A DNA stretch of 33,401 bases from a virus (IMGVR_UViG_2724679239_000006); one strand, 5' to 3'. Positions 12,520 to 33,401 are shown, numbered from the stretch's first letter. Made by a program: numbers and translations. The notes: generated from the sequence alone by a model not told the origin.

Positions 12520-12673
12520 TGCTCCCCCTGAGTAATTACAGGAAGATTACCCGCGCGCGAAACCGTTCTCCTTAACCCCCTGTTCTGGCCGTTTTCTTAC
12601 AACAAAAGCCCTTTGTATCAGCCTGTTACGCTTTGCCATCATGACTGAAGGACCAGTCAGAGGGGCAAAAACT
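12520..12673. promoter_or_regulatory. Divergent late promoter region (P-Q leftward, O-N-M-L rightward)
   Basis: Intergenic interval between divergent P and O genes, equivalent to the P2 PP/PO region; no clean TGT-N12-ACA Ogr site identified. Confidence 0.35.
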
Positions 12674-13510
12674 ATGGCTAATGAAAAATCAACAACCCGC
12701 AAAAAGTTTCGCGTGGCTGTCTCCGGTGTAACGGCAGACGGGCGCGAAATCAACGGCGACATGCTGAAAGCTGCCGCCACCAGTTATAACCCGTCCGTTT
12801 ATGGTGCACGTGTGAATATTGAGCACATCCTGTCACCACTCCCCGGTAGCGAGTTTTCCGCTATGGGCGATGTTGTGGGGTTGAGCACCGAAGACATAAC
12901 CGATGGCCCGCTGGCAGGTCGCACGGCACTGTATGCCGAAATTGAGCCGACCGCTCGCATGATGTCCCTGCTTAACGATGGTAAAAAAATTTACTCCAGT
13001 ATTGAGCTGGAGCCACAGTCAACCATCACGGGAGGCCCTTACCTGCGCGGGCTGGCAATGACCGACACCCCCGCCAGCCTGGGCACGGAACGTCTGGCCT
13101 TTGCGGCACAACAACGTATGCAACTGATGACATTCAACTGTCAGCAGGGAGACGTGGCGATGTTTACCGCCGCTATGGAGTCAGAACTTATCGAACTCAC
13201 CGAACAACGTCAGGAAGAAGGTACCCAGTGGTTTAACCGCGTTATGGGGATTATTGGCCGTGGCCGCAAAGCGGATGACGCCAGTTTCTCCCGTATTCAG
13301 GAAGCGGTGGAAGGTGTCGCAACGTCACAGGCCGACATTATCGACCGTTTTAATGTGCTGGAAACCCGCCATCAGCAGGACAGCCAGAAAATCACTTTAC
13401 TGACCACAGAGCTGGCAGCACTGAAGGAAAAACTGCGCACGCAGGACGGCGATCCGCAGAACCGGTTCACCGCAACGGGCGCAGCCTCCGACCAGCTGGC
13501 TGACTTCTGA
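12674..13510 (+). CDS. O: Capsid scaffolding protein (gpO)
   Basis: ATG at 12674 (MANEKSTT...) with RBS GAGGGG; about 278 aa; position before the major capsid gene. Confidence 0.85.
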   Translation: MANEKSTTRKKFRVAVSGVTADGREINGDMLKAAATSYNPSVYGARVNIEHILSPLPGSEFSAMGDVVGLSTEDITDGPLAGRTALYAEIEPTARMMSLLNDGKKIYSSIELEPQSTITGGPYLRGLAMTDTPASLGTERLAFAAQQRMQLMTFNCQQGDVAMFTAAMESELIELTEQRQEEGTQWFNRVMGIIGRGRKADDASFSRIQEAVEGVATSQADIIDRFNVLETRHQQDSQKITLLTTELAALKEKLRTQDGDPQNRFTATGAASDQLADF

Positions 13511-17344: not shown

Positions 17345-17495
17345 CACTCCCACATGGGGAAATCTCGGTATATGGGGCGACCGCCTTCTGGATGCACTGG
17401 AAACCTGTAACGCGGATAAACGGGCCATTGAATTACTGGAGCAGCGCAGACTGCAACGACTGAACAACGAGGACAACAGCCATGCTGAAAACTGA
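17175..17495 (+). CDS. lysC: o-spanin lipoprotein (LysC/Rz1-like), overlapping lysB in the +1 frame
   Basis: Lipobox LLTGCAG after a short signal sequence; proline-rich segment TIPVTPPPFPDTP; start is either GTG 17175 or ATG 17205. Confidence 0.6.
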   Translation: MNSYATILQKMNAPTLCLTLVLLTGCAGTQNAPRPAPSVRLIPQTLTIPVTPPPFPDTPTWGNLGIWGDRLLDALETCNADKRAIELLEQRRLQRLNNEDNSHAEN

Positions 17496-17949
17496 TTCCC
17501 TGCGTGAAGCCATGACCCGTTCATGTCGATGGTGTCACGCCAACCCGGAGAAATTCACCATTTTCGTGGAGAGCGGCAACATTGAAACGACCGGAGAAAC
17601 TCCCTCGTTTGCTTACCGCTATCAGATGGTGATGTTTGTCATGGATTACGCCGGGGAGCTGGACGACCTGACTCTGCCGCTGCTGGCGTGGTTGTCGGAG
17701 AATCAGCCGCAGTTGTTGCTCAACCCTGAGCGTAATCAGGACATCAAATTTTCTGCCGTTATTAATGACGATGACAGCGCCGATATCCTGTTTACACTGC
17801 CCCTGCGGGAGCGCGTTCGCGTCACGCGCAGCAGTCAGGGCACACCACAGGCAGAACACCTGCCGGAGCCAAAACCCCGCCTGCCATCTTCCGAAGGCGA
17901 CTGGTCACATGTATTCCAGGATGTGACGTGGGGCGAAAGCGATGGATAA
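17482..17949 (+). CDS. R: Tail completion protein (gpR)
   Basis: 155 aa, size and position as P2 R. Confidence 0.8.
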   Translation: MLKTDSLREAMTRSCRWCHANPEKFTIFVESGNIETTGETPSFAYRYQMVMFVMDYAGELDDLTLPLLAWLSENQPQLLLNPERNQDIKFSAVINDDDSADILFTLPLRERVRVTRSSQGTPQAEHLPEPKPRLPSSEGDWSHVFQDVTWGESDG

Positions 17950-18577
17950 GGCATTCACCCGCGCGGATGAAACCTTCGAGGCTATCCGCGACAGCCTGAA
18001 TCAGCAGGCCATCAATAACATCGCCAGAAAGCTGGCACAGGATTTACGCCGCGCCCAGCAGGCACGTATCCGGTCACAGAAAGCGCCGGACGGGACCGCA
18101 TGGACACCACGCAGACGCCGCGTAACCCGGATACAGGAGCGCATTCGCTTTATCTGGAATAACGAAACACGCACGCTGAAAAACTGGCATCACGACACAG
18201 GGAAATACGGGCGAACCATTACCGGGTGGGATGAGGATAAAAACAATATCCGCACGTTTTACCGGGATGACATCGACCGTTTTCTGGAAATACGCACCCG
18301 ACGTATCAACCAGGACAGCACAAAGCACGTCCCCATGTTCGTAAAACTGCGCACCGCCCGTTACCTGAAAGCCCGCGCGGATGCCTCCGGTGTGACAGTG
18401 GGTTACAGCGGCGTGGCCGCACGTATTGCACGCGTTCATCAGTTCGGTGAACGCGATCAGGTTGCGCCGGGTATTTTCACCAATTATCCGGTACGTGAGC
18501 TGCTGGGTATCAGTCAGGCGGATGAGCGCCTGATTTATAACACGGTGCTGGGCCGGATTGCGGAGGCAGTACAGTGA
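17942..18577 (+). CDS. S: Tail completion/virion morphogenesis protein (gpS-like)
   Basis: 211 aa; position between R and V. Confidence 0.75.
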   Translation: MDKAFTRADETFEAIRDSLNQQAINNIARKLAQDLRRAQQARIRSQKAPDGTAWTPRRRRVTRIQERIRFIWNNETRTLKNWHHDTGKYGRTITGWDEDKNNIRTFYRDDIDRFLEIRTRRINQDSTKHVPMFVKLRTARYLKARADASGVTVGYSGVAARIARVHQFGERDQVAPGIFTNYPVRELLGISQADERLIYNTVLGRIAEAVQ

Positions 18578-19155
18578 ACGCAGAACTTATGAGACTGCTG
18601 AGCAATATCATCCGCACCGGGATCATCTCTGAAATTGATGAGAAATCCTGGTGCGTGCGGGTCCTCAGCGGCGGACTGGAAACAGGCTGGTTGCGCTGGA
18701 ACACCACGCGCGCGGGAGCCTTCAATGTGTGGCTGCCGCCATCAGTGGGCGAACAGGTGGCAATTGCCTGCATCGGCGGCAACCCGGAAACAGCCATGAT
18801 AATTGGCAGCCTGTGGAGCGATGACATTCCGGCCCCCGGAAAAAGCCTGAAAGAAATCGTGGTCAGCGCGCCGGATGGCGCGGTGTTCTGCTACGACGCG
18901 GACGCAGGCGCACTGAGCGCCAGCGGCGTGCAAACGGCCACCCTGCAGGCATCCGTCAGCGTGAAACTGGACACACCTGTCGTGGAGTGCACAAACCTAC
19001 TGAAAACAGCCGAGATTGACGTCACAAAAGGGGGAAAGATGAGCGGCAATATCACGCACAGCGGCGGCAATTTCACCTCAAACGGCATCACTGTGCATAC
19101 GCATAAACACGGTGGCGTTAAAGGTGGCAGCGATTCGACAGGAGGACCGCAGTGA
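18574..19155 (+). CDS. V: Baseplate spike/assembly protein (gpV)
   Basis: 193 aa; ATGA overlap with S; position as in P2. Confidence 0.8.
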   Translation: MNAELMRLLSNIIRTGIISEIDEKSWCVRVLSGGLETGWLRWNTTRAGAFNVWLPPSVGEQVAIACIGGNPETAMIIGSLWSDDIPAPGKSLKEIVVSAPDGAVFCYDADAGALSASGVQTATLQASVSVKLDTPVVECTNLLKTAEIDVTKGGKMSGNITHSGGNFTSNGITVHTHKHGGVKGGSDSTGGPQ

Positions 19156-20402: not shown

Positions 20403-20925
20403 TTCACTGTTACCACCATCAGCCAGCAATTTCATGCGTTGTGCCGAAGCCGTCGGAACGCGCATTACAGACATTCCGGTAGACCTCAACACGCTGTGGT
20501 CGCCGGACACATGCCCGGTGCATCTGCTGCCTTATCTCGCCTGGGCGTTTTCCGTTGACCGCTGGGACCGCAACTGGCCGGAGGAAACAAAGCGCCAGGT
20601 GATTCGCGATGCGTGGCTGATACACCGACACAAGGGGACCATCAGCGCACTGCGCCGGGCCATTGAGCCGCTGGGATACCTCATTCGCGTGTCTGAGTGG
20701 TGGGAGTTCGGCGGAGAACCGGGAACATTTACCGTTGAAGTCGGCACGCTGGACAGCGGTGTGACGGAGGAAATGTATCTGGAAATGGAGCGGTTGATTG
20801 CTGATGCCCGCCCGGTCAGCCGCCACATGACAGGACTGAATATCATTCAGGAAATCCCGGGGGATATTTTCGCAGCGGCGGCAACTTATGACGGTGAAGT
20901 TATCACCATTTATCCAGGCGATTAA
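20395..20925 (+). CDS. I: Baseplate/tail protein (gpI)
   Basis: ATG at 20395 overlapping the J stop; 176 aa. Confidence 0.8.
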   Translation: MSNSLLPPSASNFMRCAEAVGTRITDIPVDLNTLWSPDTCPVHLLPYLAWAFSVDRWDRNWPEETKRQVIRDAWLIHRHKGTISALRRAIEPLGYLIRVSEWWEFGGEPGTFTVEVGTLDSGVTEEMYLEMERLIADARPVSRHMTGLNIIQEIPGDIFAAAATYDGEVITIYPGD

Positions 20926-20927
20926 GC

Positions 20928-23156
20928 ATGAGTACCACAACACGAAAATTTAAAACCGTTATCACTGATACGGGTGCAAAAAAATTAGCACAGGCAGCCG
21001 CACCAGATGGCAAACCCGTCCGCCTGACACATATGGCCGTGGGTGACGGCGGCGGTACTTTACCCACGCCAGACAGTAAGCAGACCCGTCTTGTGCATGA
21101 GGTGTGGCGACATACCGTTAATCGCGTCTTCCTGGACGCAACACATCAGAACCGCATTATTGCGGAGCTGGTTATTCCTCCAGAAACGGGCGGATTCTGG
21201 ATCCGGGAAATTGGTGTGTTTGATGAGCACGGCGATTTAATCGCGGTGGGAAATACTGCCGAAAGTTACAAGCCAGCCGTTGCCGAAGGGTCCGGGCGTG
21301 CGCAAACATTTCGCACCATCCTGACCGTATCCAGCACGGCCACCGTGGCGCTTACCGTGGATAACACCATGGTGATGGCCACGGTGGATTACGTGGATGA
21401 CAAACTAAAAGAGCATGAACAGTCACGACGTCACCCGGATGCCTCGCTGACCGCAAAAGGCTTTACTCAGTTAAGCAGTGCGACCAACAGCACGTCTGAA
21501 GCACTGGCCGCAACGCCGAAAGCGGTAAAGGCTGCATATGACCTTGCTAACAGGAAATATACCGCACAGGATGCCACCACAGAGCAAAAAGGCCTTGTCC
21601 AGCTCAGTAGCGCCACTAACAGCGTGTCTGAAATGATGGCGGCAACGCCGAAAGCGGTAAAGGCCGCCTATGACCTTGCTAACGGGAAATATACTGCACA
21701 GGACGCCACCACAGCGCGAAAAGGCCTTGTCCAGCTCAGTAGTGCAACCAACAGCCCGTCTGAAACGCTGGCTGCGACGCCAAAAGCTGTTAAGGCGGTA
21801 ATGGATGAAACGAACAAGAAAGCGCCGCTGTCGAGTCCGGCACTCACCGGAACGCCAACCGCACCAACTGCGCCAAAGGGTACTAACAATACTCAGATAG
21901 CAAACACGGCGTTCGTTATGGCCGCGATTGCCGCACTTGTAGACTCATCACCTGACGCACTGAATACGCTGAACGAGCTGGCTGCGGCATTGGGCAATGA
22001 CCCGAACTTTGCGACTACTATGACCAACGCGCTTGCGGGCAAGCAGCCGAAAGACGCCACCCTGACGGCGCTGGCCGGGCTTGCTACTGCGGCAGACAGG
22101 TTTCCGTATTTTACAGGGAATGACACCGCCAGCCTGGCAACTCTGACAAAAGTCGGGCGGGATATTCTGGCTAAAGCGACCGTTGCCGCCGTTATCGAAT
22201 ACCTCGGTTTGCAGGAAACGGTAAATCAGGCCGCTGGCGCATTGCAGAAAGACCAGAACGGCGCAGATATTCCAAACAAAGATAAATTTACGCAAACAAT
22301 AGGTGCTTGCCGCTCTTTTCATGGTTCTATTAGCACAGGTGCAGGAAACTGGACGACGGCGCAATTTATTGAATGGCTGGAATCTCAGTGGGCCTTCAAT
22401 CATCCATACTGGCTGTGTAAATGCTCATGGTCATACGGCAATAATAAAATTATTACTGACACCGGATGTGGACTTATTCACCTTGCGGGTTGCGTTATTG
22501 AAGTTATGGGCAATAAAGGCGCCATGACCATTCGTATAACCACACCGAGTACCTCTAGCAGTGGTGGCACCACTAATGCGCAATTTATATATATTAACCA
22601 CGGTTCAGAGTATTTACCTGGCTGGCGACGTGACTACAACACGAAAAATCAGCAGGCCGCTTTTGCTTTAGGGCAAACAGGAAGCACTGTCGGAAATGAT
22701 AAAGCTGTTGGCTGGAACTGGAATAGCGGGGTATATAACGCAAATATTGGTGGCGCATCGACATTAATCCTCCACTTCAATATGAACGCGGGTAGCTGCC
22801 CTGCTGTACAGTTCCGCGTAAATTATAAGAACGGTGGTATTTATTATCGTTCAGCGCGTGATGGTTATGGCTTCGAGGCTGACTGGTCAGAGTTTTACAC
22901 CACAACCCGAAAACCTTCAGCAGCAGATGTTGGGGCATATACTAAAGCGGAATGTAATTCACAATTTATTACAGGTATTCGATTAGGTACAAAATCATCA
23001 GCGCAAACATGGAATGGTCCTGGCTGGGGCGATAAATCTGGTTACGTTGTTACAGGTTCCGTTAACTCAAACAAAGATGAACTTATTGATACAACACAGG
23101 CAAGGCCAGTGCAATATTGTATCAATGGCACCTGGTATAATGCGGGAAGTATTTAA
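20928..23156 (+). CDS. H: Tail fibre protein (gpH) in current orientation; C-terminal 310 aa encoded inside the invertible segment
   Basis: 742 aa; three tandem 44-aa fibre repeats; C-terminal motif QYCINGTWYN; crossover site inside the ORF at 22201..22225. Confidence 0.9.
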   Translation: MSTTTRKFKTVITDTGAKKLAQAAAPDGKPVRLTHMAVGDGGGTLPTPDSKQTRLVHEVWRHTVNRVFLDATHQNRIIAELVIPPETGGFWIREIGVFDEHGDLIAVGNTAESYKPAVAEGSGRAQTFRTILTVSSTATVALTVDNTMVMATVDYVDDKLKEHEQSRRHPDASLTAKGFTQLSSATNSTSEALAATPKAVKAAYDLANRKYTAQDATTEQKGLVQLSSATNSVSEMMAATPKAVKAAYDLANGKYTAQDATTARKGLVQLSSATNSPSETLAATPKAVKAVMDETNKKAPLSSPALTGTPTAPTAPKGTNNTQIANTAFVMAAIAALVDSSPDALNTLNELAAALGNDPNFATTMTNALAGKQPKDATLTALAGLATAADRFPYFTGNDTASLATLTKVGRDILAKATVAAVIEYLGLQETVNQAAGALQKDQNGADIPNKDKFTQTIGACRSFHGSISTGAGNWTTAQFIEWLESQWAFNHPYWLCKCSWSYGNNKIITDTGCGLIHLAGCVIEVMGNKGAMTIRITTPSTSSSGGTTNAQFIYINHGSEYLPGWRRDYNTKNQQAAFALGQTGSTVGNDKAVGWNWNSGVYNANIGGASTLILHFNMNAGSCPAVQFRVNYKNGGIYYRSARDGYGFEADWSEFYTTTRKPSAADVGAYTKAECNSQFITGIRLGTKSSAQTWNGPGWGDKSGYVVTGSVNSNKDELIDTTQARPVQYCINGTWYNAGSI
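21456..21810 (+). repeat. Three tandem 132-bp repeats (third partial) inside the tail fibre gene
   Basis: Repeating peptide KG(F/L)(T/V)QLSSATNS.SE..AATPKAVKAAYDLAN.KYTAQDATT read three times. Confidence 0.6.
22201..22225 (+). other. Invertase crossover site (left inverted repeat, gix/cix-like)
   Basis: ACCTCGGTTTGCAGGAAACGGTAAA; its exact reverse complement occurs at 25218..25242. Confidence 0.65.
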
Positions 23157-23158
23157 TT

Positions 23159-23692
23159 ATGATGCATTTAAAAAATATTAAAGCAGGAAACCCCAAAACC
23201 GTAGAACAATATAAATTAACACGACAATTTGGCGTTGTCTGGTTGTATTCTGATGACGATAAAAACTGGTATGAGGAACAGAAAAACTTTCAGGAAGATA
23301 CAATAAAATTTGCTTACACTGCCGATGGAATCATTGTGGCTGTAGATAAGGATGTATCGACAATTAATCCCGAAGGTTTAAGCGTTGTTGAGGTTCCTGA
23401 TATTACAGCCAATAGGCGGGTCGATATTTCTGGTAACTGGATGTTCAAAGATGGCGCAGTGATAAAGCGGGAATATACCGAAGAAGAACAGAGACAACAG
23501 GCGGAAAATGAGAAGCAAAACCTGTTACAACTCGTCAGGGATAAAACTCAGCTATGGGATTCTCAGCTACGACTTGGAATTATTTCTGCTGAGAATAAAC
23601 AAAAATTGACCGAGTGGCTGCTCTACGCGCAGAAAGTAGAGTCTACGGATACCTCCGTCCTGCCAGTCACGTTCCCCGAACAACCAGAATGA
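23159..23692 (+). CDS. G: Tail fibre assembly chaperone (gpG)
   Basis: 177 aa; N-terminus [21 protein letters not shown]; directly after H. Confidence 0.85.
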   Translation: MMHLKNIKAGNPKTVEQYKLTRQFGVVWLYSDDDKNWYEEQKNFQEDTIKFAYTADGIIVAVDKDVSTINPEGLSVVEVPDITANRRVDISGNWMFKDGAVIKREYTEEEQRQQAENEKQNLLQLVRDKTQLWDSQLRLGIISAENKQKLTEWLLYAQKVESTDTSVLPVTFPEQPE

Positions 23693-23695
23693 GAG

Positions 23696-23720
23696 AAGGC
23701 CCGTTCGGGCCTTATTTTTT
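23696..23720 (+). terminator. Hairpin terminator between convergent chaperone genes
   Basis: AAGGCCC-GTTC-GGGCCTT followed by a T-run. Confidence 0.5.
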
Positions 23721-24255
23721 ATTCAGGCTTTTGTGGCCATTCAGGATTTGCCGTATCCACGCGGCTGAGCAGAACGCTGTAGCGTTCCCAGCCATCCAGC
23801 CGTGTACGTTCCTCATCTGTTGCCAGATTCATCCTGACGGCACGTTCCAGCAGCCGGATGACTGATTCAGCTTCGGAAAGCAAAGCTGCTTTTTGTGATT
23901 CAGCCTGCTGTTGTAATTCATCTTCTGTATAGACTCTTTTAATTACAGCACCATCCTTAATCATCCAGTTGCCGGAAATATCAGCGCGTCGGTTTACCGT
24001 AATATTGGGTAACTCAATAACACTCATTCCCTCTGGATTAATCAGGGATGCGTCTTTCTCTATGCAGCAAATAATACCCTCCTGGTTATATGCCACTTTT
24101 AACGTGTCTGGCTGGAAGTTTTTTTGTTCCTCATACCAGTTCTTACCTTCTTCCGACCATAACCAGACAACATCAAATTCTTTTGTAAGTTGATACTGTT
24201 CGATAGTTTTTGGATTTCCTGCTTTAATATTTTTTAAATGCTGCATATTAAGCAC
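23719..24255 (-). CDS. Alternative tail fibre assembly chaperone (G-prime), inverted orientation
   Basis: 178 aa; clearly paralogous to gpG ([21 protein letters not shown] versus [21 protein letters not shown]). Confidence 0.85.
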
Positions 24256-25217
24256 GTCCTACATTGTACCACTGACCATTAATATATTTCTGAACAGGCG
24301 CATAGACAGGCCACTCCCAGTCGTCATCAAAGTTACCACCTGTAAGAACACACCCCGCAGGGAGTGTTCCACCTTCGCCACCCCATTTTATTCCGCTCTG
24401 GTTAGCTCCCATGCGAACGTCACGCACATAGCGGGAATCAAAATTTCCATAATTTCCGGGAATAATTTGTGAACCACAAAGCCAGTTCCCGTTATTGTCC
24501 ATATACGCCTGACCGTCAGTACCATTGGCTGTCCTTGAGTTATTAATCATGTAGATGCCAAATTGCTTGTTCCCCAGTCCACCTATCATGAACTTGCGGT
24601 CAGCGTGATTCTGGCGAAGCAACGCCTGAGCGCTATCAGTGTTAACTATATTTTTCCCAAAGATAGCGTTGTTATCGCGCATCTGAATCCACATACCATT
24701 ACTGCTGTTAATAGCAAAACGGTCTGAAAGCGTCTCCCCTGAAACATTAAGGCCACGCCCCATCGAAACAGCGCCAGTAGCGTTATTAATCCATAATGGC
24801 CTTAATCCGTTATAAGTCCCCATGTTGTCACCGGAGTTTGTCAACATGAAGTATGTGTTTGAACCATCATTACGAATAAAGAATCCGTAATTACCATAAG
24901 CAATACGAAGGCCGTTTGCTGATTTTGATATGACTTCGCCATTTACAATGGCATTAACAAGAATATTTAGCGCATCCCATTTCAGCGTCATCAGGTCTTT
25001 TGTTGTTGTGCTTTGTTTGCTTCTCCATTTGAAATATTCATTGCCGTTATCTCCCGTTTCAAACCACATGAATGAATCAGTGTCACCATCGGCATCATTT
25101 TTAAATCCAATCTTCGCCCAGTCAGAATTCCGAATCCAGGCAAGGATTGAGTCGTATTCAAAAGTAAGCCCACCGGACAAGGTATCGCCTGTCTTTTGGA
25201 CGGCGTTACCAGCCTTG
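24248..25217 (-). CDS. Alternative tail fibre C-terminal segment (H-prime), promoterless and startless until inversion
   Basis: Open frame runs through the right crossover site (track ORF 24248..25276); contains [10 protein letters not shown] matching [10 protein letters not shown] at the H crossover; C-terminal motif [10 protein letters not shown]. Confidence 0.8.
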
Positions 25218-25242
25218 TTTACCGTTTCCTGCAAACCGAGGT
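25218..25242 (-). other. Invertase crossover site (right inverted repeat)
   Basis: Exact reverse complement of 22201..22225. Confidence 0.65.
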
Positions 25243-25305
25243 TTTTGATAATGGTCGTTTCTGGCCCACATGGCATGATTTGTGCTTTTGAGCGGGAGAT
25301 TCAAT

Positions 25306-25905
25306 GTGCTGATTGGCTATGTACGCGTGTCAACAAATGACCAGAACACGGATTTGCAACGCAATGCGCTCAATAGCGCAGGATGTGAACTGATTTTTGA
25401 AGATAAAATCAGCGGAACAAAGTCAGCCAGACCGGGATTGAAAAAACTGCTCAGAACACTGTCAGAAGGCGATACGCTCGTTGTCTGGAAACTGGACAGG
25501 CTGGGCAGAAGCATGAAACACCTGATCACACTGATTGAGGAATTACGGGAAAAAGGTGTCAATTTTCGTAGTCTGACGGACAGCATTGACACATCAACAC
25601 CCATGGGGCGCTTCTTTTTTCACGTCATGGGGGCTTTAGCTGAAATGGAACGCGAACTGATAGTTGAACGTACCAGAGCAGGACTGGCAGCAGCCCGCGC
25701 ACAGGGGCGCATTGGTGGGCGTCGTCCGAAACTGACAAAAGAGCAACATGAGCAAATAGCAAGGCTGATTAAAAACGGCCATGACAGAAAACAACTGGCC
25801 ATAATTTACGGCGTTGGTATATCGACGATTTATCGTTACCACCCCGTGGGAGAATCAACCGGGACAACTGAGAAGACCAGAGGAAACAAAAAACCGCTAA
25901 TCTGA
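25306..25905 (+). CDS. Serine DNA invertase, Gin/Cin/Pin/Hin family
   Basis: GTG start giving MLIGYVRVSTNDQNTDLQRNAL; catalytic serine motif, GDTLVVWKLDRLGRSMKHL, and C-terminal HTH; near-identical in pattern to Gin/Pin as remembered. Confidence 0.9.
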   Translation: MLIGYVRVSTNDQNTDLQRNALNSAGCELIFEDKISGTKSARPGLKKLLRTLSEGDTLVVWKLDRLGRSMKHLITLIEELREKGVNFRSLTDSIDTSTPMGRFFFHVMGALAEMERELIVERTRAGLAAARAQGRIGGRRPKLTKEQHEQIARLIKNGHDRKQLAIIYGVGISTIYRYHPVGESTGTTEKTRGNKKPLI

Positions 25906-25917
25906 TCATTAGCGGTT
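25892..25917. terminator. Bidirectional hairpin terminator between the invertase and gpU
   Basis: 10-bp stem AACCGCTAAT/ATTAGCGGTT with 6-nt loop, flanked by A-run and T-run; overlaps the invertase stop codon. Confidence 0.5.
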
Positions 25918-25927
25918 TTGCGTTAAA

Positions 25928-26422
25928 TCAAAACAGCCCTTTAACTGAGCTGACTGCATTGTTAAGGGATGATGTTACCTTATCTTTAAGGCCGGACAGC
26001 ATATCGCTGAACGATGAGGATTGCAGGCGTTCCCGCAAATCCTCATCACAGCGTTCAAGGGTCAGGGAAAACTCTATCTTTTTCGCTTTCCCGTAGCGAT
26101 CCAGTTCAGAGCGGGTCGTGCTCGTTTCGGTCAGAACATACATGCCGTAAATCTGCCCGACGCCATCAATCAGAGGCCACGGGCGCCCCATATACGCCTG
26201 CGTGGTCAGCAGCGACAGCGACACTTCGCCGCCTGTAATCTCAGGATAAAGCACGCCGGAAAGAACGATGCGATCATCACCTGCACCGATATACTGCCAG
26301 CTTGCGGAACGGTTAACGCGCTCGTTTTTCACATGTCGCCAGCTTTTGTTTTGCTGTAACTGCTGATGCGGCAACGTGCGCAGCTCAAAAACAAACATGC
26401 CGTAGATCATCATCATGGCCAT
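25928..26422 (-). CDS. U: Tail protein U (gpU)
   Basis: 164 aa; pattern WRH...VVLSG..YPE..GG..SL...GK.WPLIDG.G.IYGMYV matches P2 gpU as remembered. Confidence 0.8.
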   Translation of the reverse strand: MAMMMIYGMFVFELRTLPHQQLQQNKSWRHVKNERVNRSASWQYIGAGDDRIVLSGVLYPEITGGEVSLSLLTTQAYMGRPWPLIDGVGQIYGMYVLTETSTTRSELDRYGKAKKIEFSLTLERCDEDLRERLQSSSFSDMLSGLKDKVTSSLNNAVSSVKGLF

Positions 26423-26428
26423 GACTCC

Positions 26429-29266
26429 TCAATCTTTATCGTAAAAACTGCCACGCCCGGCACGGGTACGCCGCTCCAGTTCTGCCCTGACCATTTCGCC
26501 GACCAGTTTCGCCAGTTCGCGGGGATTCTGCGTAACAACGTTATGCAGATGGACATGAATTTCACCACCAAATCCGGGGGTCGCAGCCTCCCGGCTGCGG
26601 GAAGATGCGGAAACGGGCGCAACTGGCGCACGTGCGGCCTCCACGACCGGACGGGAGCTTGCTGCAACAACAGGGGGCAGCGCCGGAGATAACGGAGCCG
26701 GGGGCGCGGGAGTGATATTGATTGCAGGAAGAGCCTTGTTGCTCTGCGCAACCTTTCGCTCCTGCCACTCCCCACGAACAGCAAGCGCACGGGGCAGGTT
26801 CTTAAAGACAATATCACCGGGGCCGATACGCTTTTTCGTCTCATCAACCAGCTTGCCCGTATTATCTGCAATTTTGCTGAGCCTGCGTAGCGTGCCAGTG
26901 TTGTTGTCCGTGAGCGGCTTATTGTCTTTAGGCTTATCGCCTCCGGTCCCTGTTTCCGCAGACTTCGGCGGATTGATTTTTGCCAGGTCCCCCTGAAGCA
27001 AAGCAACCTTGTCCTGAAGAATGGCCGCACGCTGCGCGTCTTCGATTTTCTTTCTCGCCCTTTCCGCTTCATCTGGAAGGACACCAAGTTTTTCAAGTAT
27101 CCATGCCAGCGTATCCAGCAGCATTTTGGCAGGCGTCAGGACAAGCTGTAACGCACCGCCAAGAACGTTGCCGAATACCTCGCCAGCACTGGTGCATTTA
27201 TCCAGCGTTTCCTTGCTGGATTCCATCGGTGACAGCAGCGATGTAAACCAGTTAAAGACCTGAATCACGCCATCACGAACCAGTTCGAAAACAGGGCCAA
27301 ACCGTTCAAAGGTTTCGCGTAACGGGGCCAGCCGCTCCATAATCCCGCTGAACACCCCGGCAAAAAATGCCCTGATTGGGTCCCAGTATTTCCAGATGAG
27401 AACGGCAGCTCCGGCAAGCGCAGCTACGATAAGACCGACCGGGCTGAACAACGCCCCGATAGCACCTCCCAGTAAAGAGACGGAACCCGTCACCATTCCC
27501 CATAGTGCTGGCAGGACCCTGACAGCATTCATTGAACCGGTCAGGAGGGAAAAGCCAAGACGCAGTTTTGCCAGCGGGCCAGCAAGCACACCAATAGCCA
27601 GCGACAACGAGCCAACCGTTGCAGTCATTGCCAGCAACGCACCGCCTGCTATCAGTAGCTGGCGCGTCAGTACCGGATGGGCCTGCGCCAGCGCCGTCAC
27701 CCTTGATACCACCCGCGTGAGCCACTGCGTGACAGAACGCAGCGGACCGTCAATCAGATCTGCAATGCGGATGCGCAACCCTTCCCATGCACTGTCGAGT
27801 GATTTCAGATCGCCGTCAAGGTTGTTGGCCATAACCTTTGCTGTGCGTTCAGCCTCACCGCGCGCGCCTTCAAGTTCTTTTCTCAGTTTAGGTAAGGAAC
27901 CGTCACCTGCCGCATCAACGAGGGCCATAAATGACGTGAAGGCCTCTTCTCCGGCTATGTCCTTAAAGAACGATACCCGGTCAACTTCCCCGTATTTGCG
28001 GGTGGCTTTATAAAGGTCGGCCAGCACATCCTCCATCGGGCGCATTTTGCCGTTCGCATCAGAGACAGCCACACCAAGCTCTTTCAGCGCCTCTGCCGCC
28101 GCCTTTGGCGGTGATGCCAGACGAGCAAGGCTGGCACGCATTGCCGTCCCGGCATCACTCCCTCTGATACCCATATTCGCCAGCACGCCCGCCATCGCTG
28201 CGGCCTGCTCCAGCGATATTCCCAGCTTACCCGCCACCGGACCTGCATATTTCATGGTTTCGCCCAGCGCGCGAAGGTCGGTGTTAGTACGGGTAAACGC
28301 CGCAGTAAGTGTGTCGCCGACCCGATCCATCTGGTCAGCAGAGAGGCCGAACTGCGTCAGGATATTTGAGCCAATATCCGCCGTCTCGCCAAGGTCCATA
28401 CCGCCAGCCGTTGCCATGCTCAGCACGCCGGGAAGCGCAGCCTGAATGGCTTCTGGTGTGAAGCCAGCCATAGCAAGAAATGCCTGCCCACTGGCGGCAT
28501 CACTCGCAGTAAACTGCGTTTCAGAGCCGAGCTTTAGCGCCTGCTCACGCAGCGCCTTAAACTGCGGGCTGTTCTGGTCAATTCGCGTCAGCGCCTGCAC
28601 ACGGGACATCTCTTTCCCGAATCCGATAGCGGGCTGCAAAAAACGCCCGGCAGCATAGCCGCCAGCCGCTGCCGCACCAGTTGCCAGCGCACCACCCGTT
28701 TTCAGTTTTCCCGCTGTTTCCTGCGCGCGTGAATACTGCTCACGCGCCCGCGTTACACGCGCAAGCGCCTGTCGTTCGAGTTCAAGCTGGTTGTTGTACT
28801 GTTCGGTGCGTCTGATGGCCTGCTGGATGGTGTTATCGCTGCCTGTCAGGGAAATACCGTGGCGTTTAAGCTCTCCGCCAAGCTCCCGCATTTTCTGAAT
28901 TTCCCGTGTGCGCGATTCATTCAGGCGTTCAAGCCGGGTGCTTAACTGCTGCATCAGCTTTTGTTGTTTTTCGCTGAGCACCGTACCCGTGCGTTGTAAC
29001 TGATGAAGGGCGTTAAGCTGGCGTCGTGCTTTCACGATGCCAGCATCCGCTTTACTGACAGCATCGCGGGCGCGCTCAAATGAACGCGCCTGACGCTCGA
29101 GATTTTTGATCGCCCCCTGCGTTCGCTGGATGGAGTCACCAAGCTGTCCCATCAGGCGGCGGGCGTTTTCGGCTGGCCGGGTCAGCCTGTCAACAGCACT
29201 GAAGGCGACCCGAATGTCAAGAGTCTTCATCGTCTGCATTCCCACTGCGAAGTGCCGCCCGCTCAC
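26429..29266 (-). CDS. T: Tail tape measure protein (gpT)
   Basis: 945-aa ORF, helical/alanine-glycine-rich with hydrophobic core segments; start uncertain (possible later starts at 29239 or 29230, after the E' stop). Confidence 0.85.
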   Translation of the reverse strand: MSGRHFAVGMQTMKTLDIRVAFSAVDRLTRPAENARRLMGQLGDSIQRTQGAIKNLERQARSFERARDAVSKADAGIVKARRQLNALHQLQRTGTVLSEKQQKLMQQLSTRLERLNESRTREIQKMRELGGELKRHGISLTGSDNTIQQAIRRTEQYNNQLELERQALARVTRAREQYSRAQETAGKLKTGGALATGAAAAGGYAAGRFLQPAIGFGKEMSRVQALTRIDQNSPQFKALREQALKLGSETQFTASDAASGQAFLAMAGFTPEAIQAALPGVLSMATAGGMDLGETADIGSNILTQFGLSADQMDRVGDTLTAAFTRTNTDLRALGETMKYAGPVAGKLGISLEQAAAMAGVLANMGIRGSDAGTAMRASLARLASPPKAAAEALKELGVAVSDANGKMRPMEDVLADLYKATRKYGEVDRVSFFKDIAGEEAFTSFMALVDAAGDGSLPKLRKELEGARGEAERTAKVMANNLDGDLKSLDSAWEGLRIRIADLIDGPLRSVTQWLTRVVSRVTALAQAHPVLTRQLLIAGGALLAMTATVGSLSLAIGVLAGPLAKLRLGFSLLTGSMNAVRVLPALWGMVTGSVSLLGGAIGALFSPVGLIVAALAGAAVLIWKYWDPIRAFFAGVFSGIMERLAPLRETFERFGPVFELVRDGVIQVFNWFTSLLSPMESSKETLDKCTSAGEVFGNVLGGALQLVLTPAKMLLDTLAWILEKLGVLPDEAERARKKIEDAQRAAILQDKVALLQGDLAKINPPKSAETGTGGDKPKDNKPLTDNNTGTLRRLSKIADNTGKLVDETKKRIGPGDIVFKNLPRALAVRGEWQERKVAQSNKALPAINITPAPPAPLSPALPPVVAASSRPVVEAARAPVAPVSASSRSREAATPGFGGEIHVHLHNVVTQNPRELAKLVGEMVRAELERRTRAGRGSFYDKD

Positions 29267-29749
29267 GCCAGCTAACCACTTCGCCGGGCGTCATCATGAA
29301 GATTTCGGCGGGCGACCAGTTAAAAATAACGGCAATATCTGCCACAAAGTCTTCTATGTGCTCAAAGCACACAACCGTGATCAGGCTTCCGTCGCCTGTT
29401 CGTTCTTCCCGCCAGAGTCCGCACCGCTCAAAAAATTTACGGCAACCACACATAACTGAATAAAGTCACGGGATGCCATTTTTTTGATCGTCACTTCATC
29501 CAGTCGCGGTGATGTCACGCGTGACAACAGCGTAAACATGGATTCCGCTTTCAGACTCAGCACATCAGACAGCGACAGACCACGCAGGGATCCAGCCTGC
29601 TCAATAGCCCCGGTAATCTCCACATACGTGATTTTTTCGTCGCCTCGCTCAATTGGCTGGGTAAGTTTTACGCCGCGCTCGCCGGTTTCTTTCGCAGTAT
29701 CAGCAACCACCACAGCGTTTTCAGTATCGGTATTTTTCGTCTCTTTCAT
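29217..29749 (-). CDS. gpE+E' fusion chaperone made by programmed -1 ribosomal frameshift
   Basis: Slippery site T_TTT_TTG at plus-strand coordinates 29429..29435 (minus-strand mRNA); the -1 frame is open from there to a stop at 29217. Confidence 0.6.
29381..29749 (-). CDS. E: Tail assembly chaperone (gpE)
   Basis: 122 aa; PIERGD...LRG pattern as in P2 E; contains the slippery heptamer TTTTTTG near its 3' end. Confidence 0.8.
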   Translation of the reverse strand: MKETKNTDTENAVVVADTAKETGERGVKLTQPIERGDEKITYVEITGAIEQAGSLRGLSLSDVLSLKAESMFTLLSRVTSPRLDEVTIKKMASRDFIQLCVVAVNFLSGADSGGKNEQATEA

Positions 29750-29803
29750 CAGAAAACTCCTTTCAGTCAGGGGCGACGCACTGCGCCGCCTGCATATTAC
29801 ATA

Positions 29804-30316
29804 TCAGCCGAGCCCGAGCGCGGAACGGATGCGGTCGGGTACAATGTCCTTGCCATCCTTCCGGTAGATGTGGTTCACCAGGTCAATTTCCCACACCGGA
29901 CGATCGTTAATACTCAGCTTGTAGTAGGTGTTTTTGACAGCGTAAGTGTGTGACGTGGCTTCGCCCTGTTTGGCCTCCCCCATATCAATTTCCGTCACAC
30001 GCCCGCGCATCTCGATTTCATACAGGTCGCTTTCTGCATCGGTGTAGTATTCACCCGCAAAACGCAGCAGCGTGCCGTCCATTGTTCCGCCATATTTAAG
30101 GAACAGCGCACGAACGGCGCCCCCCATGACAAAACTCGCATCAAGCGCGGAATCGTCCAGGCCGAGGTCGATACTCACCGCTCCCAGCATGCCACCACCA
30201 CGATAGCTGTCGGTTTTACGCGTCAGTTTAGGCGGGGTGACAGACGTCACCTTACCCACTTCATTTTCACCATCCACAAACAGCGTAAAAAAACGAAGAT
30301 GTTTTGGTACGGCCAT
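29804..30316 (-). CDS. FII: Tail tube protein (gpFII)
   Basis: 170 aa; SVTPPKLTRKTDSYRGGGM..DLGLDD pattern matches P2 FII. Confidence 0.9.
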   Translation of the reverse strand: MAVPKHLRFFTLFVDGENEVGKVTSVTPPKLTRKTDSYRGGGMLGAVSIDLGLDDSALDASFVMGGAVRALFLKYGGTMDGTLLRFAGEYYTDAESDLYEIEMRGRVTEIDMGEAKQGEATSHTYAVKNTYYKLSINDRPVWEIDLVNHIYRKDGKDIVPDRIRSALGLG

Positions 30317-31500
30317 TAAGCACCTCCAAGCACTGCAAATGCAGGACCAAAGAACTCATCAGTGAACGCCTGGTAAAGCTCCATATCTTCCAGCGGAGGA
30401 ACGGGCGTATATTTATAGCGAATACGCACGCGCCCCTGTCGTAATTCTGTGGTGCTGTTATCCACGATGTCATACCAGCACGATGCGCCAATCAGTTTCC
30501 CGGCAGTAACCAGCGAATCCAGTTTTGCCCTGATGGCACTGATGACGTCCTTCACGTTCGCAGGCGTCAGTGGACTGTCGATGGTTTCAAACTGCGCTTC
30601 CGCAACCGTGTCAGCCAGCACCTGTGCGGTTCGGGTATACACCTCAAAAATGTAGGCGTTCGTTTCCGGCGTACGGTTACCCCAGAAGCGGAACCCGTTG
30701 CGGCGAATGATGGTTGTGATTTCTTTGTTGTTGAGGCTGTTGGCATCGCTGTCTTCGGCCTGCAACGACCAGAACACATGCCTGGACATCCCCAGCACAT
30801 TTTTGACCGGAACGTTGGACAGCGATTTGTGCCAGCCCTGCTCATGGTCAATGTACGCACGAAGGCCGCACGCATAGGCTGGCGCGGGGAAAACCTCATT
30901 CTCGCCACTTTTCGGGTTGTAAGCGATGAAGTCCGGCCACAGGAGCATCAGCTCGCGTTCGTTGAATTTTTCACGGTATGCAATGGCTTCAGCCATCGTG
31001 TTACAGCCATGACAGGAGGCATACACAAACGCGCGCAGTTTACCTGCAATCACGCACAGGGATTTTGTCACCGCCTCCGTGTCCAGCCCCGGCGCGGCCA
31101 GAATACGCGGACGGTATCCGATGCTTTCATCCTGCTCTGCAACAAGCAGCGCATACATCCCCGTATAGCTGCCGTCGGATTCAGAACCACCGATAACCAG
31201 TTGATCCTGTGTTTTTCCGTCTTCTTCTTTGTGTTCAGCCACGCGAACGACGATCACCTTTGTGCTCACCTGGTCTGCAATGGGTTTCAGCGCACGGTAC
31301 AGCGTCCCCGTTGTCCCGCATTTTCCCAGCACGTCATTGACGCGGGTCACTAATGCAGGCTTGTTCAGCGGGAACAGCTTCGCGTCCGCATCGTCCGCCG
31401 TTGCCACGATACCGATAACGCTGGAATCAACGTCGTTAATTGCTGTTACCAGGTCGGTACTTTCCGTAACGCGGGCGCCATGAAAGCGAGTTTCACTCAT
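30316..31500 (-). CDS. FI: Tail sheath protein (gpFI)
   Basis: 394 aa; FPLNKP, PRILAAPGLDT, RELMLLWPDF, GFRFWGNRT and YTPVPPLE blocks match P2 FI. Confidence 0.9.
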   Translation of the reverse strand: MSETRFHGARVTESTDLVTAINDVDSSVIGIVATADDADAKLFPLNKPALVTRVNDVLGKCGTTGTLYRALKPIADQVSTKVIVVRVAEHKEEDGKTQDQLVIGGSESDGSYTGMYALLVAEQDESIGYRPRILAAPGLDTEAVTKSLCVIAGKLRAFVYASCHGCNTMAEAIAYREKFNERELMLLWPDFIAYNPKSGENEVFPAPAYACGLRAYIDHEQGWHKSLSNVPVKNVLGMSRHVFWSLQAEDSDANSLNNKEITTIIRRNGFRFWGNRTPETNAYIFEVYTRTAQVLADTVAEAQFETIDSPLTPANVKDVISAIRAKLDSLVTAGKLIGASCWYDIVDNSTTELRQGRVRIRYKYTPVPPLEDMELYQAFTDEFFGPAFAVLGGA

Positions 31501-31657
31501 AGTTCCAGCCCCTTGTATCCGTTAAATGATTCGGCAACAATCATCACCCACCACGCGCGTAATCTCATCCCTGCGCCGTTCTTGCCGCCCGGCGACAACA
31601 AAAAGCAGTAACCCCGCCCGCACACACATGCGACCATGCTGCACAGGGAGGGAGCCG
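31501..31657. promoter_or_regulatory. Divergent intergenic region between FI (leftward) and D (rightward), with 19-bp palindrome ATGATT-N7-AATCAT at 31526..31544
   Basis: Only non-coding interval available to drive both the tail operon and D in this arrangement; palindrome seen directly. Confidence 0.3.
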
Positions 31658-32767
31658 ATGATTGACACCACCATGCAACTGTTCAACCAGAGTACTGACC
31701 CCGTGAAGATGCCTGATTTTGATATTCTCGCGGAGGGGAAAACGCTGTCCGGTGTGACAGAACGCCTGATGAGCCTGTCACTGACCGACAACCGGGGATT
31801 TGAAGCAGACCAGCTAACCATCACGCTGGATGATGCTGATGGTCAGTTGCAGTTGCCGCCACGGGGCGCTCGCCTGACGGTTCTCATTGGCTGGAAAGGC
31901 GAACCGCTGACAGAAAAAGGCACTTACATTGTTGATGAAATTGCTCATGAAGGACCGCCCGACAGACTGACCATTTCAGCCAGAAGCGCAGATTTTCGGG
32001 ATGAATTTAACGTCAAGCGCGAAGTATCCTGGCATGATGTGACCGTTGAACGCGTGGTGTCTGCAATTGCTCACCGATACGGCCTGAAACCGCAAATCAG
32101 CGAAATGCTGATGGATATTGAAATCGACCACGCTGACCAGACCGAAGAAAGCGACATGTCCTTCCTTACACGCATGGCGGAAATGCTGGGCGCAATCACC
32201 ACGGTAAAAAGCGGTAATCTGTTATTCATCATGCCAGGTGGTGGCGTGAACGCGCAGGGAAAACCATTACCATCGTTTGCCATCACACGCAGCAGCGGCG
32301 ATCGCCATCAGTTTCGCATTGCTGACCGCGAGGCGTATACGGGGGTACGCGCTTACTGGCTTGATCTTAATTACGGGAAAAAGAAAAAAGTCAGCGTGAA
32401 ACGCCGCAAACCGCCAAAACCCAAAAAGGAGAAAAGCAGCAGCCGTGAAGGTGACTATATGGAAGGTGCGGAAGGCAACGTGTTTGTGTTACGCAAGACT
32501 TATCAGAACGAGCAGGCAGCAAGACGCGCAGCGGCGGCAAAGTGGCAGCAGCTACAACGCGGAGCCGCATCATTCTCCATCACGCTGGCGCGTGGACGCG
32601 CAGAACTCTACCCCGAAATGCATGGCACGGTAACAGGATTTAAAAGCGAGATTGATAATCAGGACTGGATTATTGCAAAAGCCGAGCACTCCATTGATAA
32701 CAGCGGCTTTACCACGCAGCTTGAGCTTGAGGCAAAAATCCCGGAATGGATAGCAGAAACAGAGTGA
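31658..32767 (+). CDS. D: Tail protein D (gpD)
   Basis: ATG at 31658 with RBS GGGAGGGAG; 369 aa; position before ogr. Confidence 0.85.
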   Translation: MIDTTMQLFNQSTDPVKMPDFDILAEGKTLSGVTERLMSLSLTDNRGFEADQLTITLDDADGQLQLPPRGARLTVLIGWKGEPLTEKGTYIVDEIAHEGPPDRLTISARSADFRDEFNVKREVSWHDVTVERVVSAIAHRYGLKPQISEMLMDIEIDHADQTEESDMSFLTRMAEMLGAITTVKSGNLLFIMPGGGVNAQGKPLPSFAITRSSGDRHQFRIADREAYTGVRAYWLDLNYGKKKKVSVKRRKPPKPKKEKSSSREGDYMEGAEGNVFVLRKTYQNEQAARRAAAAKWQQLQRGAASFSITLARGRAELYPEMHGTVTGFKSEIDNQDWIIAKAEHSIDNSGFTTQLELEAKIPEWIAETE

Positions 32768-32809
32768 GCAACTTAGAATAGCGGCAGCACCACGTTAAGG
32801 GAGGTCGCT

Positions 32810-33070
32810 ATGTTCCGTTGTCCGCTTTGTGGCGCATCTGCCCGAATCCGCACCAGTCGTTCGGAAAATGATTCAGATACCGTACGGAAAAAATATTACC
32901 AGTGTAACAACCTGGAATGCGGCGTATGCTTCTCAACACTGGAGGCTTTCCATAAATTCACATCGAAACACGCCCCCGGCGTTCACTCTTCAGAGGGCAT
33001 CCCGTGGAATGAGCTACCAGCTTCGCACAGGGGAAACAACCAGATGAGTTTGCCATTACCTCAGAATTAA
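32810..33070 (+). CDS. ogr: Ogr/Delta-family zinc-finger late transcription activator
   Basis: 86 aa; MFRCPLCG...YYQCNNLEC C4 zinc finger as in P2 Ogr; RBS GGGAGG. Confidence 0.85.
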   Translation: MFRCPLCGASARIRTSRSENDSDTVRKKYYQCNNLECGVCFSTLEAFHKFTSKHAPGVHSSEGIPWNELPASHRGNNQMSLPLPQN

Positions 33071-33130
33071 CAGGCTGAATTGCCGGAGTAACAAAAAAGC
33101 GATAGATTACGCGCGGGTGCCTTTCGGCTG

Positions 33131-33343
33131 ATGGCTGGAGGGAATACCCGAAGGCCGGATGTGGAAAGGCCCCGGAAAACATCTCTGTTTAACCGAGGCC
33201 CTGACCATCTAACCTTAGCAAGTGATAGGTTAGCGCCTCCCCAAAAAAGGAGCAAGCGCTATGTCGCAAAAATCGCTTATGGCCATCACGTTCTGCGTGA
33301 CGGTAATCCTCATCATCTGGATGCTGCACGGTTCGCTGTGTGA
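33131..33343 (+). CDS. Mok-like overlapping reading frame of the hok locus
   Basis: 70-aa ORF starting upstream of and overlapping the hok-like gene in another frame, as expected for mok. Confidence 0.3.
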   Translation: MAGGNTRRPDVERPRKTSLFNRGPDHLTLASDRLAPPQKRSKRYVAKIAYGHHVLRDGNPHHLDAARFAV

Positions 33344-33401
33344 AATACGGATGAGCTTCTGGGGAGCGGAGTTTGCGGCGTTCTTACAGTGTAAGCAGTA
33401 A
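33261..33401 (+). CDS. Hok/Gef-family type I toxin (46 aa)
   Basis: RBS AAGGAG 8 nt upstream; translation MSQKSLMAITFCVTVILIIWMLHGSLCEIRMSFWGAEFAAFLQCKQ has an N-terminal TM helix and the conserved SLCE(I/L)R...E.AAF..C core of Hok proteins; stop codon is the last triplet of the window. Confidence 0.6.
   Translation: MSQKSLMAITFCVTVILIIWMLHGSLCEIRMSFWGAEFAAFLQCKQ

Follow-up and report, generated by a model that had tools for sequence, protein, structure and literature searches.

In the P2 record (NC_001895), a single strand encodes H, G, FI, FII, E, E′, T, U, D as well as ogr, as had been correctly stated in the original prediction that the present analysis followed up. The F operon of P2 is co-directional with H and G, has one annotated start and includes D, the start codon of which overlaps the stop codon of U, and the record also annotates the E+E′ frameshift. 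The four late operons of P2 have been described together with the TGT-N12-ACA consensus (PMC3931495). Among the annotated activator sites of P2, that of pF has the form GTTGT-N12-CCAAC and that of pP/pO the form GTTGT-N12-CCATC, the latter being entered only once in the record, as ‘activator binding site; pO, pP promoters’, with the transcription starts of the two promoters at distances of 54.5 and 56.5 bp on either side of the centre of the dyad.

We here analyzed the corresponding genes in a stretch of viral DNA of 33,401 nt, below called the window, in which the tail region was mapped using open reading frames (ORFs) and Pfam domains. The features found were as follows.

20928-23156, plus strand: H, from the ORF/Pfam map
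23159-23692, plus strand: G, from the ORF/Pfam map
25928-26422, minus strand: U, gpU-like tail protein (ORF; PF06995 Phage_P2_GpU, E=1.4e-38), last in the leftward tail operon
26429-29266, minus strand: T, gpT-like tape measure (ORF; PF10145 PhageMin_Tail, E=4.9e-59)
29217-29453, minus strand: E′ frame (PF06528 Phage_P2_GpE, E=1.7e-12), entered from E via a -1 frameshift
29381-29749, minus strand: E, gpE-like tail chaperone (ORF; tblastn identity 32% with P2 E, 43% with SEN4 E)
29804-30316, minus strand: FII, tail tube (PF04985 Phage_tube, E=1.6e-45)
30316-31500, minus strand: FI, tail sheath (PF04984, PF22671, PF17482), heading the leftward operon
31501-31657, no strand: FI-D divergent control region of 157 bp, with homologous spacers of 151-157 bp in six other lineages
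31658-32767, plus strand: D, gpD-like tail/baseplate hub (PF05954 Phage_GPD; 95-98% to Xuanwuvirus D, 49% to P2 D)
32810-33070, plus strand: ogr-like zinc-finger late activator (PF04606 Ogr_Delta, E=2.4e-14)

The ORFs and Pfam domains confirmed that FI through U are encoded leftward and H, G, D and ogr rightward, and that a spacer of 157 bp separates the divergent FI and D, this length following from the D start being taken as ATG 31658. That start is preceded by the ribosome-binding site GGGAGGGAG and is the one annotated in both P88 and Citrobacter phage Shae_phiSM; it was preferred to a start at 31526, where the longer ORF is merely an in-frame upstream extension. The block has also retained the slippery E/E′ heptamer of P2, TTTTTTG, which could be read in the minus-strand sequence at 29435->29429.

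The closest phage records were those of the Xuanwuvirus group, including P88, P884B11, 503458, 520873, 500465-2, Chuche, PhiR44_2 and Citrobacter Shae_phiSM, with a DNA identity of 88-94% over 60-84% of window 20900-33401. The gene tables of P88 and Shae_phiSM agreed gene for gene with the ORFs of the window, in the order H-G-(inverted G′-H′)-invertase-U-T-E-FII-FI, with U through FI in reverse and then D in forward orientation. Judged by these matches, the window is a Xuanwuvirus-type (P88-like) prophage of the P2 family. P88 and PhiSM are inducible, viable and plaque-forming phages (PMC5285337, PMC6456863), and the inverted layout is consequently a functional one.

To define which phages share this layout, a protein-level census was made with FI and D as queries, because a junction blastn (distant search) had matched across the FI-D junction only in Xuanwuvirus and KSP20, the DNA of the other genera being too diverged for detection in that manner. 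FI and D were adjacent and divergent in all 47 of the 47 phage records having FI at least 55% identical, spanning Xuanwuvirus, Novemvirus phiT5282H, Reipivirus, Reginaelenavirus 3LV2017, Senquatrovirus SEN4/SEN5 and the unclassified Serratia phage KSP20, and no second orientation of the FI-U block was found among these 47 clade records. The same order is annotated in P88, Shae_phiSM, SEN4, KSP20, phiT5282H, 3LV2017 and ST16-OXA48phi5.4, and the inverted block could be seen from the ORFs in Kp4848-1. In every cross-checked record with an FI identity of 51% or less, FI and D were co-directional, as found in Erwinia ENT90, Klebsiella ST258-KPC3phi16.1 and 16.2, Kp4848-2, Acidovorax Acica, Burkholderia KL3, Wolbachia WO, P2 and Fels-2. 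A D of the clade type (71% identical) occurs also in the record CP052639.1, which stands outside this cross-check of FI orientation. The expectation that Fels-2 and SopEPhi would share the inverted layout proved wrong, with Fels-2 being co-directional. The divergent layout did not extend beyond a single close group of similar phages, in which FI was at least 55% and D at least 63.6% identical.

The layout was also common in bacterial genomes. Using an 861 bp query that covered the 5′ end of FI, the spacer and the 5′ end of D, the junction was found to be contiguous in 1358 of 5426 complete Escherichia coli genomes (~25%), these being 1358 of the 1385 genomes with any match to the query. None of the partial matches listed had a break at the block boundary, as they were either truncations or tiny hits. 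The possibility that the orientation would be an assembly artefact, or reflect a polymorphic segment that is currently switching, can therefore be considered practically negligible, with the junction contiguous in all of those complete E. coli genomes as well as in independently sequenced phages from several laboratories, and with no repeats at the ends of the block that could drive either switching or misassembly. P88-like prophages and their sister genera ordinarily have the FI-U block annotated in this orientation, as can be seen in RefSeq records. Two explanations had been offered in the original prediction, a normal layout of the lineage or an ancient inversion. The first of these was borne out by the orientation being common among relatives (47 of 47 records, at least five Peduoviridae genera and about a quarter of the complete E. 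coli genomes), the very outcome that the original prediction had named as refuting anything unusual, and the synteny comparison with P2, Fels-2 and close relatives, giving P2 and Fels-2 as co-directional and the close relatives as divergent, also showed that the arrangement is not unusual for its lineage. The second also turned out to be the best reading, since the outgroups keep the P2 order, and the two hold together.

It is quite probable, in our assessment, that the FI-U block became inverted in place in an ancestor shared by one subclade of the Peduoviridae and was then fixed, yielding a normal functional layout. The subclade would comprise Xuanwuvirus, Novemvirus, Reipivirus, Reginaelenavirus, Senquatrovirus and Serratia KSP20, and the event would have been the flipping, between G and D, of a segment containing the F promoter together with FI-FII-E/E′-T-U. 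D, ogr and int retain the P2 orientation relative to H and G, and because of this, with all sampled outgroups being co-directional, one inversion is the simplest reading. The inverted state is best read as derived, with the polarity taken from the sample of cross-checked outgroups. The reverse polarity, with a divergent FI/D layout being ancestral and the co-directional layout of P2 derived, could be argued from the bidirectional usage of a dyad at P/O in all P2-like phages, such that a divergent F/D arrangement would not be intrinsically derived. We nonetheless regard that history as unlikely, because all of the cross-checked outsiders (from Burkholderia, Acidovorax, Erwinia, Klebsiella, Salmonella and Wolbachia) were co-directional and because a single change within the divergent group is a more economical assumption than a large number of reversions in parallel.

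Exchange of tail modules occurs between phages, and FI of the window shares no more than about 46-49% identity with its P2 and Fels-2 counterparts, as could be the case if FI-U were a foreign tail module that had been acquired in the opposite orientation instead of having been inverted in place. However, the identities to P2 inside the block (FI 46%, FII 42%, U 46%) were similar to those of genes outside of it (Q 47%, P 45%, N 42%, W 45%, D 49%), so that the genes outside are as diverged from P2 as those inside, and FI, located inside the block, defined the same set of relatives as D, located outside. Furthermore, both the content and the internal order of the block were exactly those of the FI-FII-E/E′-T-U genes of P2, including the TTTTTTG frameshift site. 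The equal divergence of block and flanking genes, together with the shared set of relatives for FI and D, argues that the block was probably inverted in place and not captured as a foreign tail module, the latter being a decidedly unlikely origin in view of these comparisons.

The original prediction also held that the inversion was plausibly mediated by the invertase encoded next to the block. The features found in this part of the window were the following.

22192-25251, no strand: invertible tail-fibre segment, Mu G / P1 C-like, with gix-like ends and a Mu G megablast match
22192-22217, plus strand: gix-like site TTATCGAATACCTCGGTTTGCAGGAA, left end of the segment
25226-25251, minus strand: gix-like site TTATCAAAAACCTCGGTTTGCAGGAA, right end of the segment
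25282-25905, plus strand: serine invertase of the Gin/Cin/Hin family (PF00239 Resolvase and PF02796 HTH_7), with GTG 25306 as the likely true start
25885-25924, no strand: hairpin lying between the stop codons of the invertase and U, an inverted repeat with a terminator-like match at minus 25919-25890

The invertase gene and the U end of the block are 22 bp apart, and serine invertases of the Gin/Cin family occasionally use degenerate secondary sites, whereby the adjacent Gin/Cin-type enzyme might have flipped FI-U through secondary quasi-gix sites that have since decayed. The evidence found here went against this proposal on several counts. The window has only two gix-like sites, both of them flanking 22192-25251, which is also exactly the span of the megablast match to the Mu G region (82.8% identity). 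The best gix-like 26-mers at the two ends of the FI-U block matched at 13/26 and 17/26 positions, which is background, in agreement with the initial observation that no gix-like site was present at the block boundaries, and no inverted repeat pairing both block ends was found. Among phages with the inverted layout the invertase was confined to Xuanwuvirus, and no invertase is encoded between the fibre genes and U in SEN4, Kp4848-1, ST16-OXA48phi5.4, phiT5282H or 3LV2017, although all of these contain the inverted block, leaving four of the five inverted-block genera without the enzyme at that place. Conversely, the tail operon of Fels-2 is in the normal orientation even though this phage has an invertible fibre cassette together with a Cin/Gin-like invertase. 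The cassette region was also of foreign composition, with a GC content of 0.42-0.46 compared to 0.53-0.59 in the tail block, and it was variable beside an invariant FI-D junction, as the invertase-U junction was contiguous in only 621 E. coli genomes vs the 1358 having the FI-D junction. In many of the E. coli genomes without the invertase the match began only at window 25921-25923, at the hairpin 25885-25924. This hairpin is accordingly also the boundary of the invertase cassette in the E. coli relatives, and has the appearance of a terminator for the leftward operon, possibly a bidirectional one; matches in the terminator scan were at chance level overall and only this hairpin was used.

When considered as an invertible segment of the Gin/Cin/Hin type, the FI-U block thus showed neither crossover sites, nor both orientations, nor co-occurrence with an invertase. 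As judged from these comparisons the invertase is a bystander that is not implicated in the inversion, and its having flipped the block by way of decayed sites appears very improbable, so that this part of the original prediction is not supported. With regard to the mechanism of the inversion, no trace is left at the breakpoints. The positions of the sites, the GC content, the case of Fels-2, the other genera without an invertase and the variable presence in E. coli instead point to the cassette being a later insertion. The invertase and the Mu-like fibre cassette would then have been inserted on the Xuanwuvirus branch only, at the position, usually a variable one, that separates the fibre genes from the tail operon, and the enzyme would act only on 22192-25251.

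Because D can, after the inversion, not be transcribed from pF, and because no source of transcription for it is present further upstream on its strand, a promoter for D would have to lie in 31501-31657. The elements proposed within this spacer, together with a related site elsewhere in the window, were as listed here.

31578-31599, no strand: Ogr-type activator dyad GTTCT-N12-ACAAC (core TCT-N12-ACA), centre at 31588.5
31540-31545, minus strand: -10-like hexamer GATGAT toward FI (putative pF), starting 43.5 nt from the dyad centre
31632-31637, plus strand: -10-like hexamer GACCAT toward D (putative D promoter), starting 43.5 nt from the dyad centre
12582-12603, no strand: second copy of the dyad GTTCT-N12-ACAAC, inside the 154-bp divergent spacer between P and O

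A strict search of the window with TGT-N12-ACA gave three matches, which is fewer than expected by chance, none of them in the late intergenic regions. It missed the sites listed above because these have one mismatch each, that in the FI-D spacer being TCT where the consensus has TGT; the sites were instead found through comparison of the P/O spacer with the FI/D spacer, followed by analysis of the relatives. Exactly two copies of GTTCT-N12-ACAAC are present in the whole window, one in each of the two spacers, although this count is not an independent test since the pattern GTTST-N12-ASAAC was derived from both of these window sites, and the independent support comes from the relatives. There, one T[CG]T-N12-A[CG]A dyad was found at the same position in each of the 151-157-bp FI-D spacers of nine genomes from six lineages, with the canonical TGT-N12-ACA in KSP20, SEN4 and 3LV2017, and the distance from the dyad was 81.5-88.5 nt to the FI ATG and 68.5-76.5 nt to the D ATG. 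On both sides, -10-like hexamers of the form xAxxAT were located at 43.5 nt from the dyad centre. Toward FI, those found across the lineages were GATGAT, AATGAT, GAATAT or GATTAT, with that of 3LV2017 shifted by 1 nt, whereas the D-ward hexamers at 43.5 nt were GACCAT, GACGAT, AATCAT or AACCAT, with GATCCT in phiT5282H. The D-ward GACCAT lies within the most conserved part of the spacer alignment. This hexamer spacing puts the dyad centre near -55 of the candidate promoters on both sides, relative to predicted starts, and gives a predicted D leader that is short, of about 13-21 nt. A generic sigma-70 scan gave no promoter in the FI-D spacer, as should be expected for activator-dependent promoters without a -35 element. 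The sequence CGCGCG-TAATCT (31554-31565) was also considered as a rightward -10 element, but was discarded because its conservation is limited to Xuanwuvirus and because no dyad is suitably spaced from it.

The P/O spacer of the window could be compared with this geometry, having a -10-like TAATCT 43.5 nt toward P and a CATCAT 44.5 nt toward O. It fits the dyad arrangement once O is considered to start at ATG 12674, a revised start having the ribosome-binding site GAGGGG and an N-terminus (MANEKS...) that aligns with gpO of P2; a start at ATG 12641, with neither a ribosome-binding site nor a gpO-aligned N-terminus, was rejected. The phage also encodes a cognate activator of the Ogr/Delta family, through the ORF at 32810-33070 (PF04606).

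From these observations it can be suggested that the inversion carried pF and a symmetric Ogr site into a position back to back with D, and that activation from this one dyad (31578-31599) would extend both to FI-U, leftward, and to an independent D transcript, rightward, such that D may have been kept under late control even though physically detached from the tail operon. We lean, if only slightly, toward one shared Ogr-type site driving both FI-U and D, which would constitute a second bidirectional late-promoter region in this subclade. For the predicted promoter facing D, both the start site and the dependence on Ogr are, like the promoter itself, deduced only from the conserved geometry of the sequence. 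The earlier statement that D is uncoupled from the tail operon hence holds in the physical sense but probably not with regard to regulation, with one Ogr-type dyad located at about -55 of candidate promoters facing both ways.

With regards to what is new, the FI-U layout should in annotation be neither flagged as a rearrangement nor linked to the invertase, and in the literature searched (Xuanwuvirus, P88, SEN4, P2-like inversion) we found no papers discussing an inversion of the tail block. This missing commentary is a gap in the literature and not the sign of a novel system. A shared dyad-driven promoter for FI-U and D was likewise not found described in the searched literature, and the only element that could be called mildly new is this putative second bidirectional Ogr-type promoter region, which follows upon a known precedent in P2. 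The layout, being standard in a very common family of enterobacterial prophages, has little significance beyond correct annotation. Within the Peduoviridae, prophage callers that use synteny, as well as annotation centred on P2, should allow for the tail operon being in either orientation. The FI-D spacer is also a compact natural test case for whether one dyad of the Ogr family can serve two divergent late promoters, and it may show how D, an essential gene that was severed from its operon, regained co-regulation. If that is true, the symmetry of an activator site would be what lets a promoter be shared after rearrangement.

Comparing the locus finally with the known systems, it was closest to Xuanwuvirus, in which the order and strands from H to ogr are as in the window, including the fibre cassette, the invertase, the leftward U-T-E-FII-FI and the rightward D. 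FI was 95-99% and D 95-98% identical, and the 157-bp FI-D spacer nearly identical, whereas the differences were found in the variable C-termini of the tail fibres, in the cargo downstream of D and in IS100 insertions in some of the members, none of which concerns the inverted FI-U layout. With the F operon of P2 the window has the gene set, the internal order and the heptamer for the E/E′ -1 frameshift in common, and it differs by having FI-U inverted and D outside of the operon, needing a promoter of its own. The activator site of pF in P2 is located 82.5 nt from the FI ATG, to be compared with 88.5 nt in the window, and the annotated P2 sites are of the same form as the GTTCT-N12-ACAAC of the window. 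The P/O region of P2 and the FI-D region of the window both have a divergent spacer of ~155-175 bp with one dyad ~55 bp from each start (predicted in the case of the window), an arrangement that is repeated in the P/O spacer of the window itself. In P2, the pP/pO arrangement serves the packaging and head operons and has both starts annotated, whereas the putative FI/D counterpart would be specific to the clade. At the spot equivalent to the invertase cassette of the window, P2 has fun(Z). The Mu G and P1 C segments were 80-84% identical to window 22192-25251 and have the gix-like ends and the adjacent serine invertase in common with it. Systems of the Mu G, P1 C and Fels-2 type flip a tail-fibre segment only, with the invertible cassette of Fels-2 coexisting with a normal tail-operon orientation, while the FI-U block is without every such hallmark.

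Scaffold gene O, opposite P across one of the two divergent spacers, was mechanically assigned an ORF starting at ATG 12641, but on sequence grounds its real start is probably ATG 12674, which is preceded by a GAGGGG ribosome-binding site and from which the N-terminus can be aligned to P2 gpO. With O starting at ATG 12674, the P/O spacer would become 154 bp, nearly equal in length to the FI/D spacer (157 bp, 31501-31657). Further along the same late region, tblastn against P2 identified an R-like gene at 17482-17949 and an S-like gene at 17942-18577, thereby placing V at 18574-19155. S and V thus overlap in the window, with no intergenic room for a P2-style pV region between them, and the O operon may either be continuous through to G or have a pV located within coding sequence.

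In P88 (NC_026014.1), a small CDS is annotated over the FI-D spacer (locus positions 11567-11698), covering the conserved dyad, and many E. coli RefSeq genomes carry 'hypothetical protein' calls in the FI-D gap; such small CDSs are likely spurious calls within a regulatory region. The product names of Citrobacter phage Shae_phiSM (OR565851.1, locus positions 10448-12899) look displaced: 'late control gene D protein' stands on the sheath gene, and D itself carries the name 'ogr/Delta-like zinc finger family protein'.

The best genome match to the FI-D junction, at 99.3%, was that of E. coli RM9088 (NZ_CP042298.1, locus positions 9765-11973), where the prophage is positioned beside ihfA-pheT. 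In this prophage D is annotated as a shorter VgrG/Pvc8-family protein, with ogr flanked by a DUF2971 gene on the D side and a Hok/Gef gene beyond it. This prophage and the window are not alike in cargo or in the state of D.

Among E. coli genomes, the invertase adjoins U in about 621, as compared with 1358 (of 5426 complete genomes) having the FI-D junction, and the cargo at the invertase/U spot (25885-25924) is therefore variable inside the lineage. The invertase/U hairpin at 25885-25924 falls at the same place as the match limit (25921-25923) of invertase-less E. coli relatives.

On the other side of the invertase, the window carries a complete invertible tail-fibre segment of the Mu G / P1 C-like type at 22192-25251, with the following features:

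Limits of 22192-25251: two gix-like sites of 26 bp each
Inside 22192-25251, plus strand: C-terminal part of H, together with G
23719-24255: G', inverted alternative to G, inside the segment
24248-25276: C-terminal part of H', inverted alternative to that of H
25282/25306-25905: serine invertase, following the segment

The GC content of this segment is 0.42-0.46, lower than that of the remainder of the late region, and its DNA identity to Mu, D108, P1 and P7 is 80-84%.
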